Shown: in pieces, positions 2,764 to 19,426 of the stretch
Position numbering within the stretch: the stretch's first letter is position 1
Layout: each line of letters opens with the position of its first letter
Source of the DNA: a virus
Lineage: Duplodnaviria > Caudoviricetes
Virus record (IMG/VR): IMGVR_UViG_3300050003_000010
Span: 1-54,921 of that record
Direction: 5' to 3' (one strand)
Length of the DNA stretch: 54,921 bases
Made by a program: the position numbers and the translations under genes
Notes under the pieces: model-generated
The model's input: the letters and a program-made list of their open reading frames with translations, nothing else
What the model was told of the DNA's origin: nothing
The model's database searches: none

Positions 2764-3104
2764 GACAGACTCCGTTGGGTGTTGGCCAGGCTCTGGGCGA
2801 GGCAGTGGCGGGCGCCGAGCACCTCGACGTCGGCTCCGGCGGTCGTCGCGATGAGGTACTCCAGCGCTTCGAGGGCCCGCGTGGCGTCGGCGTGCAGCAG
2901 GGCCAGGTCGGCGCGCACCTGGGCGGGGTCGGCCGCGGGCATGGTGGTGGTGTGCGCCCGCTCGTGGTGGTCCTGGGCGCGCCGCCGCACCTGGGTCTCG
3001 TCGTCGCCGACGGCGCTGGTCGGGCAGAGGTGGCAGGTCCGCCGCCAGGTGCGGCCGTCGTCGCCGGCGGTGACCGTGTAGGGCTCGGTGGTCGTGTCGG
3101 TCAC
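2760..3104 (-). CDS. Hypothetical protein (CHLC...HH..AH)
   Basis: GTGA overlaps, codon bias. Confidence 0.65.
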   Translation of the reverse strand: MTDTTTEPYTVTAGDDGRTWRRTCHLCPTSAVGDDETQVRRRAQDHHERAHTTTMPAADPAQVRADLALLHADATRALEALEYLIATTAGADVEVLGARHCLAQSLANTQRSLS

Positions 3105-3391
3105 GGCCGGGCCTCGCCTTCGAGCGGCAGCCACTGCTTGACGGTGACCTCGCGCAGCTCGACCTCGGTCGCAACGACCGGGTCGGTGACCCAGGTGTCG
3201 CATTCCTGTTGCTCGGTGGCGGGTTCCTGCCAGCTGACGTGGTAGTGGCGGCCGTCGGGGTGGCGGAAGACGCCCTCGTGGATGGTGCTCCAGCGGTCGG
3301 TGTCGACGACGGCCTGCTCGACCATGTGCTCGTAGGGCACGTCGAGGTCGTCAAGCTCCTGCTGCGTGAACGTCCTGGTGATCTTGGTCAT
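3101..3391 (-). CDS. Hypothetical protein
   Basis: ORF 96 aa with 4-nt overlaps. Confidence 0.75.
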   Translation of the reverse strand: MTKITRTFTQQELDDLDVPYEHMVEQAVVDTDRWSTIHEGVFRHPDGRHYHVSWQEPATEQQECDTWVTDPVVATEVELREVTVKQWLPLEGEARP

Positions 3392-3594
3392 CGGGTCTCC
3401 GTCGTGTGGTTGCCGGGCTGGTCCCGGCGGCGTGTGGTGGGTGCGGGTCGGTCGTCGTAGGCGATGCCGTAGAGCACGCCGGCGACGTGGGAGATCGCGT
3501 CGCGTTCGGAGGCGGTGAGGCGGTCGTGCCAGGCGTGGAAGTGCATGAGCATGCGGTCGGCGGTGACCTCGGCGGGGTGTCGGCGGTCGGTCAC
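3388..3594 (-). CDS. Hypothetical protein
   Basis: ORF 68 aa with 4-nt overlaps. Confidence 0.65.
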   Translation of the reverse strand: MTDRRHPAEVTADRMLMHFHAWHDRLTASERDAISHVAGVLYGIAYDDRPAPTTRRRDQPGNHTTETR

Positions 3595-3872
3595 GTGTGG
3601 CTCCCGGTGGTGGGCGTGGGGTGGTCGGGCCGTCCGGTCGCCGCGGTGACGTCGCCGTGGCGGAGGAGTCCGGTCTCGTAGCCGATGGCGACGGCGTGGG
3701 CCCTGTTGGCGGCGCCGAGGTGCTTGAGGAGCCGCTGCGCGTAGGTCTTGACGGTCTCCTCGACGAGGTGGAGTTCGCGGCCGATCTGGGCGTTCGTGTA
3801 GCCGCGGGCCATGCCGACGAGGGTTTGGATCTCGCGCCGGGACAGGGCGGGCCTGCGCTGGGTGGGGATCAC
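3591..3872 (-). CDS. Stand-alone LuxR/GerE-type HTH regulator
   Basis: LSRREIQTLVGMARGYTNAQIGRELHLVEETVKTY...NRAHAVAIG. Confidence 0.9.
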   Translation of the reverse strand: MIPTQRRPALSRREIQTLVGMARGYTNAQIGRELHLVEETVKTYAQRLLKHLGAANRAHAVAIGYETGLLRHGDVTAATGRPDHPTPTTGSHT

Positions 3873-4042
3873 TGGGGCTCCGTGGTGTCGGGGTCGGGCT
3901 CGGCGAGTGCCGGTCGGATTTCGTAGCCGGCTTCGGTGAGGTCCCGGACGATCAGCACGGCGAGGAACTCGGGTGCGACGGGCAGGACTGCGTCGATCTG
4001 GCAGCGGGCGAGGATGACGGCGAGCGCCGCGGGCGGGATCAC
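3869..4042 (-). CDS. Hypothetical protein
   Basis: VIPPAALAVILARC...; GTGA overlaps. Confidence 0.6.
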   Translation of the reverse strand: MIPPAALAVILARCQIDAVLPVAPEFLAVLIVRDLTEAGYEIRPALAEPDPDTTEPQ

Positions 4043-4350
4043 TGGGTCCTCCGTTCGCGCCGTTCGGCCTCGTCGACCACGGCCTGGTAGGCCCGGTGCA
4101 TCAGGGAGTTCGGGGAGCCGTTCCACTCCAGCGGCGGGACGAAGCCCGTCCACAGGCTGGGGACACGCAGGCCCATCGGCGGTTCACCGAGGCGGGCGAC
4201 GAGGTCGGGGTGCCTCATGACCAACTTGCGGACGCGTTCGCGTTCCTCGAGGGCGCTTTCGCGGACCATCCGGAACCAGTCCTTGAGTTCGCCCTGGCGG
4301 CGGATCTCGCGGATGTCGTCTTGGGTGACGTGGCCGATGCCCATGTTCAT
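4039..4350 (-). CDS. Hypothetical protein
   Basis: ORF 103 aa coupled to replication genes. Confidence 0.7.
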   Translation of the reverse strand: MNMGIGHVTQDDIREIRRQGELKDWFRMVRESALEERERVRKLVMRHPDLVARLGEPPMGLRVPSLWTGFVPPLEWNGSPNSLMHRAYQAVVDEAERRERRTQ

Positions 4351-4760
4351 GCGCGGGGCCTGGGCATCATCGCGGCGGAGGTGCCGATGATCTCGTTGAT
4401 GAGCCGCTGGTCGCCGCTCGGCGGGATGGCGAGGGACGGAGCGCGCAGGCCGTTGGCGACGAGTTCGCGTTGGGCGCGGTAGTTCTCCAGGTAGACCTTG
4501 GGGTTGTCGTCGCCGTCGACGGGTTCGTACTGGAAGCCTTCGAGGCGGGCGTTCCGGAGCTTCTTGACTTCGGCGACGATCTCGGCGGGCGCGACGAACG
4601 GCTGGCGGCCGGCGATGAGGGCGGCGGAGCGCTTGCAGTCGTCGAGGGTGTAGGGCGCGAGGACGTCGATCCAGGCGTCGGCGGTGTACTCGTCGAACTT
4701 CTGCTGGGGGCAGAGGGCCCGCACGTAGCGGGTGATCACGACGGCTTCGAGGTCGTTCAC
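4347..4760 (-). CDS. Putative helicase loader/inhibitor (SPP1 G39P-like N-terminus)
   Basis: ADAWIDVLAPY...PFVAPAEIV pattern; directly downstream of the replication initiator. Confidence 0.6.
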   Translation of the reverse strand: MNDLEAVVITRYVRALCPQQKFDEYTADAWIDVLAPYTLDDCKRSAALIAGRQPFVAPAEIVAEVKKLRNARLEGFQYEPVDGDDNPKVYLENYRAQRELVANGLRAPSLAIPPSGDQRLINEIIGTSAAMMPRPRA

Positions 4761-11191: not shown

Positions 11192-11850
11192 GCGGAGGCC
11201 TCGGCGGTGGGAGCAGGCCGCGGGACCGGGGTCAGCGGGCCGTGGTGCGAGCGCAGGTCACCCAGCGGCTCCCAGTCGGCCTGGCCGAATTGAGCAGTGA
11301 GGCGGTCGCGTTCGTCGACCTGCCGCATCAGCGGCTCGTCGTACTGCCAGTCGCCGTGGTGAGCCCAGTGGTAGCCCCGGATGTCCACGTAAGGCACGCT
11401 CAGGTCGAACACCTCGACGGCGAGGATGTGCGACGCCTCGTCGACCTGGGCCTCGATCGCCTCGGCGACGATGCCGCAGTCCCACCACTCCTGCCAGTCC
11501 AAGCCGGAGGCGGTCAGAACCCGGCCGCCGGACAGTTCGATCGCGACGTGCGTGGTCTCACGCACCCACTCCGGGACGCGGCCCGCAACCTCGTGCTTGT
11601 CCATCTCGGCGCGGTGCACCAGCCGCCGCAGCAGGTCGACCTCCGCGAGCAACTCCCTCTCCAGCGCGGACCCGAGACCGGCCATGACGCGGATCTGGTC
11701 CAGTCGCGCCGCCGACATCGCAGGCGCCGGAGTGTCGCCGCACCATGCACGACAGACCAGAGACCGGGCGGCGTGCCTGTCGGTGACCACGGTCAGGACC
11801 GCGCCGGAGAAGACGCCCAGCCCGCACAGCGCGCAACGGGGCTCCTTCAT
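11188..11850 (-). CDS. Hypothetical protein
   Basis: MKEPRCALCG; ATGA overlap. Confidence 0.65.
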   Translation of the reverse strand: MKEPRCALCGLGVFSGAVLTVVTDRHAARSLVCRAWCGDTPAPAMSAARLDQIRVMAGLGSALERELLAEVDLLRRLVHRAEMDKHEVAGRVPEWVRETTHVAIELSGGRVLTASGLDWQEWWDCGIVAEAIEAQVDEASHILAVEVFDLSVPYVDIRGYHWAHHGDWQYDEPLMRQVDERDRLTAQFGQADWEPLGDLRSHHGPLTPVPRPAPTAEASA

Positions 11851-12455
11851 GAGGCACCGCCGACCGTCGCCGGGATCGCACAGTGCAGGTCGTACCGGCG
11901 GATACCGTCCACGATCGAGTGGCACACCCACAGGAACCACGGGTCGAACTCCCGGAAGCTCCACTCCCACACGTCCGAGAACTCGAAGCCCTTGAACTCG
12001 AAGTCCTGCAACAACCTGCGGGCCTCGGCCTCGTCGGCGAGGTCCCAGTCCAGAACCTCCGCGCGAAGCGCCTTGCCCAGGCCCCGCGGGGCGTCGCCGA
12101 ACCGGACCGCGTCGACGAAGTGCTCGGTCACGACCTGTCGGAACACGGCCTCGTCGTACGCCTCACACGAGAGCCGGCCACCCTCCGTCTTCGTCGACCA
12201 GTAACACGGGTTGATACGGCCGCCGTCGGAGCGGAAGAACTTGAACATGTCCGGCTGTCGCGTGAAGATCCGCCCGCCGTCCATGTCGCCCCGCACCGCG
12301 AGGGATCCCGGCCAGGTGATCAGGTCGAACCAGTACTCGGAGTTGCCCGGCTGTGCGAAGTGCAGGTGCCGGTACAGGCCTTCGTCGTGCAGGACGGTCA
12401 TCTCGTGCTCGGCCGTCTCGCGCTTGAAGCGGGCGGCGATGTCCTCGCCGTTCAC
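11847..12455 (-). CDS. Conserved phage hypothetical protein
   Basis: HEMTVLHDEGLYRHL.F..PG.SEYWFDLITWPGSL..RGD motif. Confidence 0.8.
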   Translation of the reverse strand: MNGEDIAARFKRETAEHEMTVLHDEGLYRHLHFAQPGNSEYWFDLITWPGSLAVRGDMDGGRIFTRQPDMFKFFRSDGGRINPCYWSTKTEGGRLSCEAYDEAVFRQVVTEHFVDAVRFGDAPRGLGKALRAEVLDWDLADEAEARRLLQDFEFKGFEFSDVWEWSFREFDPWFLWVCHSIVDGIRRYDLHCAIPATVGGAS

Positions 12456-16510: not shown

Positions 16511-16810
16511 ATGATGCGAGTAGCTTGGTCAGACCGTGTCCTCCGTCGCGGCCCTGATGCATCCGCTGCGCTCTTGGGGGGACCTGTGTGCGTTGTCGTC
16601 ACCGTCTGTTCTGACGTCGACTCGGCCCGGCCCGTCTCTTTCAGCCACGACGAGGCTGAGATCTTGCTGGACCCCGACGTTGCTGTGGGGCAACGTCTGC
16701 TATACGTGCAAGCCCTGTTGATCTTCCTAGGCATTGCTCAACGCGAGGGCGTGGCGACATGCCGGTGTGGGGAGCGTGTCCGCATTCCCGGAGATCACGA
16801 CGAAACGTAG
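16511..16810 (+). CDS. Hypothetical protein with C-terminal CRCGE motif
   Basis: Fills the repressor-integrase gap; weaker codon bias. Confidence 0.5.
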   Translation: MMRVAWSDRVLRRGPDASAALLGGPVCVVVTVCSDVDSARPVSFSHDEAEILLDPDVAVGQRLLYVQALLIFLGIAQREGVATCRCGERVRIPGDHDET

Positions 16811-17074
16811 TCAAGTTCGCTCTTTTGGGTGAGCTATGCAGCTATGGCTACAGGTTGTCAGTGATCGAGCGTAGAGTGCCGTTCGCCGTTGGGTTGTCAC
16901 GGAGGCACTCGGCGGTGACGCCCCCTGCCGTAGAAAGCGGCAGGGGGCGCCATGGGCTCCGGGCACGGCACAGCGATGCACGTGCCGCCATGAGAGTAGA
17001 GCGCGAAGTTCCATTCGGCATCCTGCGCATGACCCAGGTGGCAAAAACTTGACCGATTCCTGACGGGGAGAGTC

Positions 17075-18319
17075 ATGGCCGGGTACATCGAAGATCGCTG
17101 GATGAACAAACGGCCCCACAAGGAGACCGGCAAGCGCGAGCGTACTGCCCTCTGGGGCAAAGGGAAGCGCTACCGGGTCAAGGGCATCCCCGGCGTCGAG
17201 GATCGCTCGTTCGACTCCTCCGCCGAGGCGAAGAAGTGGAAGTCGACGGCCACCACGGACAAGAGTCGCGGACAGTTCGTCGACCCCCGGCGCGGTGACA
17301 TCACCCTCAGGGACTACGTCGACAAGCACTGGTGGCCCAGTGTCCGGTACCCGCCGTCCACACGCGAAGGCGTCGAGTACCGGGTCTGGGGGCACATCCT
17401 TCCCCACCTGGGATCGACGCCCCTCAACGGCATCGGAACGGACGAGATCAACGCCTGGGTCGTCAAGGCCGAGGCGAGCATCGAGCCGAACCACGTCAGA
17501 ACCTGCTGGCGCCACCTGTCGTCGATCCTCCAAGCTGCCGTCGAGGCGAAGCGCATCGCCGTCAACCCCTGCCGCGGCCACAGCACGGCGCGCCCGCCGG
17601 CCAAGCCCAAGCAGACCGTTCGCTCGCTGGACCAGGCGTCGATGTTCCTCGTCCGCGAAGCTCTCGTCGAGCGCTACCGACTCCTTCTCGACCTCGGCAT
17701 CGGGAGCGGCCTGCGCCAAGGCGAGGCGTTCGGCCTGAGTCCGGACGACATCACGGACGATCGGCTGCATGTCGACCGGCAGGTGCTCCGCATCAAGTCG
17801 AAGCTGTGCTTCGGGCCACCCAAGGGAAACAAGACGCGAGCCCTGCCGCTCGCGCCCGCCCTGGCGGATGCCATCCGTGAGCACGCGAAGCGCTTCCCGC
17901 CGGTCGAGGTGGAGTTGCGGTGGGTGGACCCGGACCGACCGAACATGCCCTGGGAGGACCGGCCGAAGATCAAGGTCCTGCTGCTCAACGCGACGGCGCA
18001 CAAGAACGCGATCAACCGGACCGACTGGAACGCGATGATCTGGAAGCCGGCACTGGAGGCGGCCGGCTTGGTCTCCAAGATCGAGGGCTCGCACCTGTAC
18101 GAGGCATCGCGTGATCTCGGCTTCCACATTGCTCGCCACACGTTCGCCTCGGTGATGCTGGAGGCCGGCGAGTCGATCGTGACGCTGGCACATCTGCTCG
18201 GCCACAGCGACCCGGCGTTCACGCTCAGGACGTACACTCATTTCATGCCGAACGCCGGCGCGCGCGGAGTGACTGCGATGGACGCCTGGCTGCGAGCGAC
18301 TCCCCCGAAGAGCGAGTGA
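17075..18319 (+). CDS. int: Tyrosine integrase
   Basis: GLRQGEAFGL, PKG, FHIARHTFAS, LGHSD...TLRTYTH catalytic motifs. Confidence 0.97.
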   Translation: MAGYIEDRWMNKRPHKETGKRERTALWGKGKRYRVKGIPGVEDRSFDSSAEAKKWKSTATTDKSRGQFVDPRRGDITLRDYVDKHWWPSVRYPPSTREGVEYRVWGHILPHLGSTPLNGIGTDEINAWVVKAEASIEPNHVRTCWRHLSSILQAAVEAKRIAVNPCRGHSTARPPAKPKQTVRSLDQASMFLVREALVERYRLLLDLGIGSGLRQGEAFGLSPDDITDDRLHVDRQVLRIKSKLCFGPPKGNKTRALPLAPALADAIREHAKRFPPVEVELRWVDPDRPNMPWEDRPKIKVLLLNATAHKNAINRTDWNAMIWKPALEAAGLVSKIEGSHLYEASRDLGFHIARHTFASVMLEAGESIVTLAHLLGHSDPAFTLRTYTHFMPNAGARGVTAMDAWLRATPPKSE

Positions 18320-18588
18320 GTCCCGGCGCGCCGAAAAGTCCCCGAGAAGTCCCAGGGACCCTATTGGATCTTCCTCTGCTCGGCTCCTGTGCTGGTCAGA
18401 GGCATAAGCGACGGATGAGTCGGCCTCTACGCCGGGTTCTGTGTGTCGGGCAGTCCCGAGCAGGCGCTCTTCTCCGAAACCCCGGCCTGTACTGCATAAA
18501 CAGGGTCCCTCAGCGTCCTACGGCGTCCGTGCTCAAGAGGCGTTTTCGTCCCTCTGGAGTCCCAGGAAATCCCTGAGGAGTCCCAGAG
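18318..18588. other. attP region with arm-type repeats
   Basis: AAGTCCCCGAG/AAGTCCCAGG at 18336-18356 and GAGTCCCAGG/AATCCCTGAG/GAGTCCCAGAG at 18557-18588 flank the core, directly after int. Confidence 0.8.
18412..18442 (-). ncRNA. rnpB: 3' terminal fragment of an RNase P RNA gene (attP core); not a complete gene
   Basis: Minus strand reads ACAGAACCCGGCGTAGAGGCCGACTCATCCG = conserved region V/P4 3' strand plus P1 3' strand of actinobacterial RNase P RNA. Confidence 0.82.
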
Positions 18589-18618
18589 CGTCCGCCGGAG
18601 AGAACCAGGACGGAGGGC

Positions 18619-19389
18619 TCATTTGCCCGGGCTGACCGGAAGCTCGTACCGCAGCCGACGGCCCGCCGCAGGCACCAGGATGGTGGCGGTCTCCACGGCC
18701 CGGTCGGCCGTGCGATACGTCCGCTCCACCAAGACCAGGACGGACTGCCGCGGGACCGCGAGCCGCTCCGCTTCGTCCGGGAGTGCGGCCCGCGCCGTGA
18801 TGTCTTCCTCGGTCCGCGTCACCTGCAGGCCGATCGATGCCATCCGCACCGGGACCCCCTGGCCGGCGAGGGGGCCGCGCTCGGGCAGGAGGATCGGGGT
18901 GCCGCCCGTGATCTCGTAGGGCTCCCAGCTCACTACCAGCATCACCGGGACGCCATCAGCACGGAAGAGATACTCCGACCGCATGACGCGGTCCCCCGCC
19001 GCGATACCGAGACGTGCCGCGACGTCGGCCGGCGCCTCCCAGGTGGCGCTCTCCGACTCCCACTTCGCCGGCATGTCCGGCTGGCCCTCGATCGCGACGA
19101 TCCACGGCATGCGTTCCGGTGAGGTGGCCTGCCAATGCCGGACCAAGCGCACGGGAGTAGGAGAGCGGACGAAGGTGCCGGATCCCGACCGGCCCTCGAC
19201 GAGACCCTCCGCGAGGAGCACCCGCATGGCCTCAAGGGCGGCGGTTGCGCCCACGCCGAACTCGGCTCGGATTTGTGAGCGCGATGGGATGCGCGAACCA
19301 GGTTCGTATTCGCCCGAGAGGATTCTTCGGCGCAACTCTGCGGCCACCTGCTTATGGGCTGGGGTGCCGCCGTAAGGCGTCCCGGCCAC
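18619..19389 (-). CDS. GntR/HutC-family regulator with UTRA domain (KorSA-like)
   Basis: QVAAELRRRILSGEYEPGSRIPS...LLAEGLVEGRSGSGTFVR plus UTRA-type C-terminus. Confidence 0.92.
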   Translation of the reverse strand: MAGTPYGGTPAHKQVAAELRRRILSGEYEPGSRIPSRSQIRAEFGVGATAALEAMRVLLAEGLVEGRSGSGTFVRSPTPVRLVRHWQATSPERMPWIVAIEGQPDMPAKWESESATWEAPADVAARLGIAAGDRVMRSEYLFRADGVPVMLVVSWEPYEITGGTPILLPERGPLAGQGVPVRMASIGLQVTRTEEDITARAALPDEAERLAVPRQSVLVLVERTYRTADRAVETATILVPAAGRRLRYELPVSPGK

Positions 19390-19426
19390 GCTGTCCCCTC
19401 TCGCATCACGTGATGTGAGCAACAGA

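Follow-up and report, generated by a model that had tools for sequence, protein, structure and literature searches.

The DNA examined here is a complete record of 54,921 nucleotides (nt) from a Caudoviricetes virus (IMGVR_UViG_3300050003_000010; hereafter the window), and the site in question is the 299-nt spacer that separates its tyrosine integrase gene, int, from a gene for a GntR/UTRA regulator. We read this spacer, at a probability of roughly 0.9, as a phage attachment site (attP) aimed at the 3' end of rnpB, the gene for RNase P RNA. The phage would be temperate and siphovirus-like, with an Embleya-like member of the Streptomycetaceae as host; positions 18320-18618 would form its attP, whose core would duplicate the 3' end of the only rnpB in the host. 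An earlier note, made from the sequence alone, had singled out a 31-mer behind int, amid AGTCCC repeats (18442-18412, minus strand), as this 3' end, and the 31-mer reads exactly as quoted there. The core starts 89 nt past the int stop codon. AGTCCC occurs six times within 18300-18600 against 0.08 copies expected (15 copies window-wide), always on the plus strand, with three copies on each side of the core. The spacer holds a core that adjoins int and matches the 3' end of an RNA gene of the host without a difference, flanked on both sides by arm-type repeats.

The identity of the core rests on several lines of evidence. A search of the whole record with the Rfam model of class A RNase P RNA (RF00010, Infernal) yielded a single partial match at 18412-18458 on the minus strand (19.2 bits, E 1.1e-5). 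This lies far below the gathering score of 100 bits, and the alignment is confined to the last ~31-47 nt, short of full-gene membership; a partial, sub-threshold match of this kind identifies an rnpB fragment and neither a gene nor a second rnpB. An RNA-family scan of the window at gathering scores was empty. Used as a pattern with up to three mismatches against 401 sampled Streptomycetaceae genomes, the 31-mer was found in 176, in four of them exactly (G025, G037, G086 and G091), and the reversed 31-mer, run as a control, gave no match in the 401 genomes. The match was preceded by a conserved rnpB body, and thus marks the end of an rnpB gene, in each of the 30 loci fetched (30/30). Its counterpart in the full rnpB of a related locus is the 3' end of the Rfam consensus (model positions 337-367), and identity to the rnpB of locus L030 (G086) extends over 34 of 34 nt (18409-18442). 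We take this stretch to be the 3' strand of helix P4 followed by the 3' strand of P1; the Rfam structure line has no P4 drawn. Within the core lies an inverted repeat, CCGGC/GCCGG with a 6-nt spacer (18420-18435), which together with this spacer may constitute the core-type binding sites and the overlap region. Collectively, the model match, the Rfam alignment, the genome counts and the 34-nt identity bear out the assignment of the 31-mer to the rnpB 3' end.

That the integrase targets rnpB, as the earlier note had proposed, is supported by the junctions of its relatives, by synteny and by the position of 17 of the best 30 related loci at rnpB. An int search of genome contigs brought up two close homologues, one in an Embleya sp. 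(69% identity) and one in a Kitasatospora sp. (61%), both located beside rnpB with a duplicated 3' end. In Embleya (L002), int (2786-4009) is followed after 98 nt by a full rnpB on the minus strand (4108-4523, 284.9 bits), and the same layout is found in Kitasatospora (L003), with a full rnpB at 11387-11788 (284.2 bits); each of the two genomes contains one rnpB. A 15-mer derived from the core located a second copy of the rnpB 3' end on another contig in both genomes. The two copies in Embleya share exactly 34 nt, the boundaries of this direct repeat being those of the core in the window, and the second copy (contig C21) is bordered by GGGGGATCTC-like repeats on one side and by a hairpin with a T-run on the other. 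DNA upstream of the Embleya int matches the window at 15.4-16.6 kb, and the flank of the second copy (L012, 581-1333) matches the window at 19374-18628, that is the GntR gene, with 59-63% identity (tblastx). Synteny of both flanks therefore shows that the int-core-GntR order, continuous in the window, is split into two junctions around rnpB in Embleya. A regenerated gene and a displaced 3' fragment, arranged as direct repeats, are present in Embleya, Kitasatospora and genomes G172, G194 and G306. Of three other matches of the 15-mer with one mismatch each (L011, L014, L015), those in L011 and L015 lie inside coding-like sequence and were discarded as chance. The second Kitasatospora copy (L013) was considered as native host sequence and rejected as such: the arm of a different element comes next to it, and it represents the previous 3' end, which is not necessarily the ancestral one.

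At two loci, L013 1350-1500 (Kitasatospora, G002:C13) and L061 (G202:C2), the rnpB fragment that ends one element directly abuts the arm of another, consisting of a hairpin and AAGTCCC. These arrangements point to tandem arrays of elements at rnpB.

Junction pairs also delimit the crossover. In G172 and G306 the two copies of the rnpB end share ACCCGGCGTACAGGCC and then diverge (GA versus TG), and in Kitasatospora they share 30 nt, ending where the identity in G172 and G306 ends, followed by several differences. As the copies are identical only within the shared block, strand exchange is placed inside it. The identity blocks narrow the exchange to 16 nt, including CCCGG of the P4 3' strand, and a crossover near P4, suggested beforehand, is a reasonable reading of these data. 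In Kitasatospora, G172 and G306 the phage-supplied P1 3' strand and its displaced counterpart are not the same. What rnpB now has as its P1 3' strand is thus element-derived and the ribozyme of these three lysogens is chimeric, so that, at least in these relatives, the element provides the 3' end of the ribozyme in the way the earlier note had foreseen. Pairing by hand indicates that the element-derived strand can still pair with the 5' strand of the host, no more than one position being mismatched. At a variable P1 position the core of the window has an A; the four genomes with an exact 31-mer, and two more that share the A, have T in the 5' strand, and Embleya-type rnpB has a C-G pair at the same position.

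We also asked how widespread this arrangement is in the same 401 genomes. An int search returned 58 genomes with a match at E <= 1e-90, and the best 30 loci were analysed. In seventeen, int has rnpB or the rnpB 3' end as its neighbour, and in 13 it does not. Of the 17, two have a full rnpB next to int, 14 have a 24-32-nt rnpB 3' end located 90-110 nt after int (blastn), and one (L062) has an rnpB 3' end after int that was found by pattern. In an integrase tree of 32 rows (the best 30 loci, the window and L004, an integrase locus from a Dehalococcoidia metagenome-assembled genome), all 18 rnpB-associated rows fall inside one 22-row clade (support 96/95), which also contains a truncated integrase (L069). 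In 15 of the 17 loci, int and the rnpB piece run in the same direction, the opposite of what is seen in the window, Embleya and Kitasatospora; relative to int, the orientation of the AAGTCCC arm repeats is constant despite this flip of the core. A co-directional core places int at the far end of the integrated element. In agreement, the distance from rnpB to the int-side fragment is 23.5 kb in G172 and ~52 kb in G306, each on a single contig, with CTCCCC-type repeats at both ends in G306; the two junctions of G194 lie on two contigs. Where the core is co-directional, a conserved hairpin with a T-run and three or four AAGTCCC copies are found in the arm behind rnpB (L018, L040, L013); in L036 the hairpin is present and AAGTCCC occurs as a single copy. 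Behind the int stop codon, most of the 30 loci have the same AAGTCCC[TC]GAGAAGTCCC motif as the window.

From these comparisons a mechanism can be proposed for the window. The integrase would bind the AGTCCC arm repeats and, presumably, the near-palindromic core, and exchange strands within the core, most likely in the zone ACCCGGCGTA(G/C)AGGCC at the junction of the P4 and P1 3' strands. After integration, int would lie ~100 nt from rnpB and converge on it. The ribozyme gene would stay whole, with the P1 3' strand and the trailer, 3' of the crossover, now being phage DNA, and the native 3' end and host terminator would be displaced to the far end of the prophage, beside the GntR gene. The anatomy of the site, its identity to rnpB, the junctions of the relatives and the synteny are observed; the binding sites, the exact crossover and the same behaviour of the window phage are inferred. 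The nearest int relatives come from Embleya spp. (69-71% identity), and the first 120 nt of rnpB in the genomes of the A type (exact 31-mer or A at the variable position) are 98-99% identical to those of a named Embleya strain. On account of both similarities, an Embleya-like host is predicted.

Several observations weigh against this interpretation of the spacer. In the window no excisionase gene was identified, and positions 16759-17052 gave no match. RF00010 was absent from an E-value-mode cmscan of 18250-18650 (401 nt), which returned only weak matches to eukaryotic long non-coding RNAs. The int-side arm of the window has no convincing terminator after the core (fold z -1.04 versus shuffles). 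A subclade of three integrases within the 22-row clade (L065, L067, L070) is devoid of an rnpB piece. The integrases behind the junction evidence have 53-69% identity, a distance over which specificity can change; the genus of the host is deduced from rnpB and integrase similarity only. No lysogen of the window phage was found, and contigs of the probable source metagenome show only an uninterrupted site with neither joints nor loose ends. An unbroken site in metagenome contigs says nothing against integration.

Four other explanations of the rnpB piece were weighed. It might be a passive scar, host DNA acquired by an ancestor on imprecise excision, with the true core in a different part of the spacer between int and GntR or outside it. 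In favour of a scar, flanking host DNA is a common origin of phage arms, and a CAGGTCAG-like arm motif resembles native rnpB terminators. However, homology between Embleya and the window breaks exactly at both ends of the 34-nt block, direct repeats of the core block bound the elements in G172, G306 and G194, and the window contains no other RNA family and no tRNA or transfer-messenger RNA (tmRNA) gene (ARAGORN), which makes a scar improbable. A function at the RNA level, for instance antisense or decoy action on RNase P RNA or protein, instead of or besides recombination, appears highly improbable, given that related elements have the core in either orientation with respect to int, as fits a DNA site better, and that no promoter-like site was detected in 18200-18700.

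The record is classed as linear in IMG/VR and has no end repeats, so that the window might also be one end of a prophage joined to host DNA, the fragment then being a remnant of attL or attR. We consider this scarcely credible, because structural and replication genes of the phage lie on both sides of the site, AGTCCC repeats flank a portion of rnpB that amounts to just 34 nt, and the GntR side is prophage DNA in Embleya as well. Furthermore, in a separate (Logan) assembly of the one public run found to contain the stretch, a soil metagenome that is probably the source of the record and hence not independent as a sample, a single contig of 54,819 nt spans the site unbroken even though it starts ~5.8 kb into the window (base 17900 of the window is base 12133 of the contig). 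If contig and window are colinear, this offset suggests that the phage genome is circular or circularly permuted. A chance resemblance to rnpB, to which the low Infernal score of 19.2 bits might lend itself, is practically negligible in view of the identities of 31/31 and 34/34 nt, the absence of control matches in the 401 genomes and the int-adjacent position in 17 related loci. We therefore retain an attP directed at rnpB as the interpretation of the spacer.

Among actinomycete elements, Streptomyces phage VWB and Micromonospora pMLP1 have integrases of the same superfamily, which are distant (26-27% identity) and target tRNA genes. A parallel among cultured phages is provided by the Arthrobacter phages TripleJ (NC_049470) and Kukla, which harbor an rnpB-3'-end-like 31-mer, 84% identical to the core of the window, in an unannotated spacer after the integrase gene. 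In TripleJ this 31-mer (L076 2501-2531, corresponding to NC_049470 26916-26946) gives a partial RF00010 match of 20.4 bits (E 3.5e-6); unlike in the window, it is co-directional with int and lies ~14 nt from the int stop codon. Among the papers listed that name TripleJ or Kukla, none deals with integration sites as judged by title or the start of the abstract.

The arrangement as a whole resembles that of phages and islands whose tyrosine integrases target the 3' ends of tRNA and tmRNA genes (on such elements, see Williams 2002 and Islander, PMC4383910): int sits beside attP and the core equals the 3' end of a structured RNA gene. Also shared with such elements are the regenerated gene, the displaced 3' fragment at the other end, arm repeats, and tandem arrays with remnants. 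In contrast to tRNA and tmRNA sites, rnpB is an essential, single-copy ribozyme gene with no isoacceptor as back-up, and the crossover zone includes the 3' strand of P4 together with the first part of P1. The mechanism is thus classical, and what sets the site apart is its target alone. Enterococcus phage phiEf11 likewise has a structural RNA gene other than a tRNA gene as bacterial attachment site (attB), for which ffs (4.5S RNA) was reported as a novel attB in 2025; according to the available part of that paper (PMC12540744), its core also lies tens of nt after int, whereas RNA, host phylum and integrase differ. The same part gives tRNA/tmRNA and csRNA as known non-coding RNA targets, does not name rnpB, and mentions software that includes RNase P models with no match reported. 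The literature searched, which did not extend to the tables and supplements of TIGER (Mageeney 2020), where rnpB may be listed, does not report this gene as an attachment site, nor do the accessible parts of PMC2516327, PMC2386152, PMC2864759, PMC3937233, PMC3541175, 10.1101/850248, PMC2818188, PMC12424338 and PMC12540744.

If the assignment holds, the rule that elements enter stable RNA genes at the 3' end and restore them would extend to the catalytic RNA of RNase P. The association is common in Streptomycetaceae, as at least 17 of the 401 sampled genomes possess an rnpB-associated integrase locus, counted from the best 30 loci. The rnpB 3' end is conserved (176/401), so that int and its site could serve as a candidate integration vector for strains of Embleya, Kitasatospora and Streptomyces in which the usual sites are missing. 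The lysogens form a natural series of chimeric ribozymes with which to ask how the P1 helix tolerates variation, and for annotation, short rnpB-like fragments in actinomycete genomes would be markers of mobile-element ends. A further-reaching proposal is tentative and, in our estimate, rather doubtful: one integrase clade may use the P4/P1 near-palindrome in either orientation, and each insertion may rewrite the terminal P1 strand, and where seen also the terminator, of the sole RNase P ribozyme. The P1 strand of the phage would then have to fit the host 5' strand, so that ribozyme compatibility as well as attB identity would limit the hosts that can be lysogenised, and lysogeny could alter 3' processing or the level of RNase P RNA.

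Coordinates of the attP region and its flanking genes in the window are given below.

Table 1 Genes and attachment-site parts at the proposed attP of the window
Feature	Position	Strand	Basis
Tyrosine integrase gene int, 414 amino acids	17075..18319	+	Pfam PF00589, PF22022
Int-proximal attP arm: AGTCCC at 18319, 18337, 18348; GGTCAG motif	18320..18408	+	Repeat count
attP core: last 34 nt of RNase P RNA, ACAGAA (P4 3' strand) through P1 3' strand	18409..18442	-	RF00010 partial match and rnpB identity
Distal attP arm: AGTCCC at 18452, 18558, 18579; degenerate GTCCC at 18505, 18548	18443..18618	+	Repeat count
GntR/UTRA regulator gene, flanking attP	18619..19422	-	Pfam GntR 8.7e-18, UTRA 1e-16

Membership of the int product in the integrase family is supported by a Pfam match of residues 196-390 to PF00589 (58.4 bits at a cut-off of 27.1, E 1e-15). 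Inspection by eye located the motifs LRQGE (213), HIARH (351), GHSD (376) and RTYTH (385), which may represent the R..HxxR..H..Y catalytic set. The best identity of int in a phage collection was ~28%, window positions 17000-18650 had no DNA match in that collection, and an int search of viral contigs gave no match. On one side of the spacer, genes for a replication initiator and a RecT-like protein are located at 4.7-11 kb; on the other, genes for endolysin, tape measure, major head, head morphogenesis and portal proteins occupy 25.8-43.3 kb. A TTTATGCAGT-type motif in the distal arm (~18487-18500, minus strand) is shared with the Embleya junction. The sole terminator-like prediction near the core of the window is the core's own inverted repeat, whereas in the Kitasatospora relative a strong hairpin with a T-run directly follows the core.

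Several further loci in the genomes are worth recording. The 31-mer matches twice in G011. In L079 (G238:C17:21800-26500) and L080 (G268:C1:2691800-2694200) a repeat of the rnpB 3' end lies downstream of the gene, at a distance of 3.7 kb and 1.1 kb, respectively, with no integrase homologue in between; both look like integrase-less islets or decayed remnants at the rnpB site. Sister integrases with 46-53% identity (L068, L071, L072, L073 and L075; also L063, L064 and L066) keep the AAGTCCC..GAGAAGTCCC arm motif, and ~100 nt downstream of int their loci show the 3' end of a protein gene (...KVKYKETARGGLAVNVIEC) or other coding sequence; in these integrases the target has switched and the arm sites are conserved. 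At the Dehalococcoidia locus (L004), whose integrase is 43% identical, no piece of the rnpB end of its own genome was found, and no tRNA or tmRNA gene was detected in L004/L005 (ARAGORN); after the integrase (L004 3296-3969), CTCCCC-type repeats form two clusters, resembling an attP or a junction. Finally, in L016, L017 and L019 (G009, G065 and G221) the sequence behind rnpB is CTGTAAAACCGCAGGTCAGAGC; it is similar to the CAGGTCAG motif of integrase-side arms and may be a remnant of another element type.
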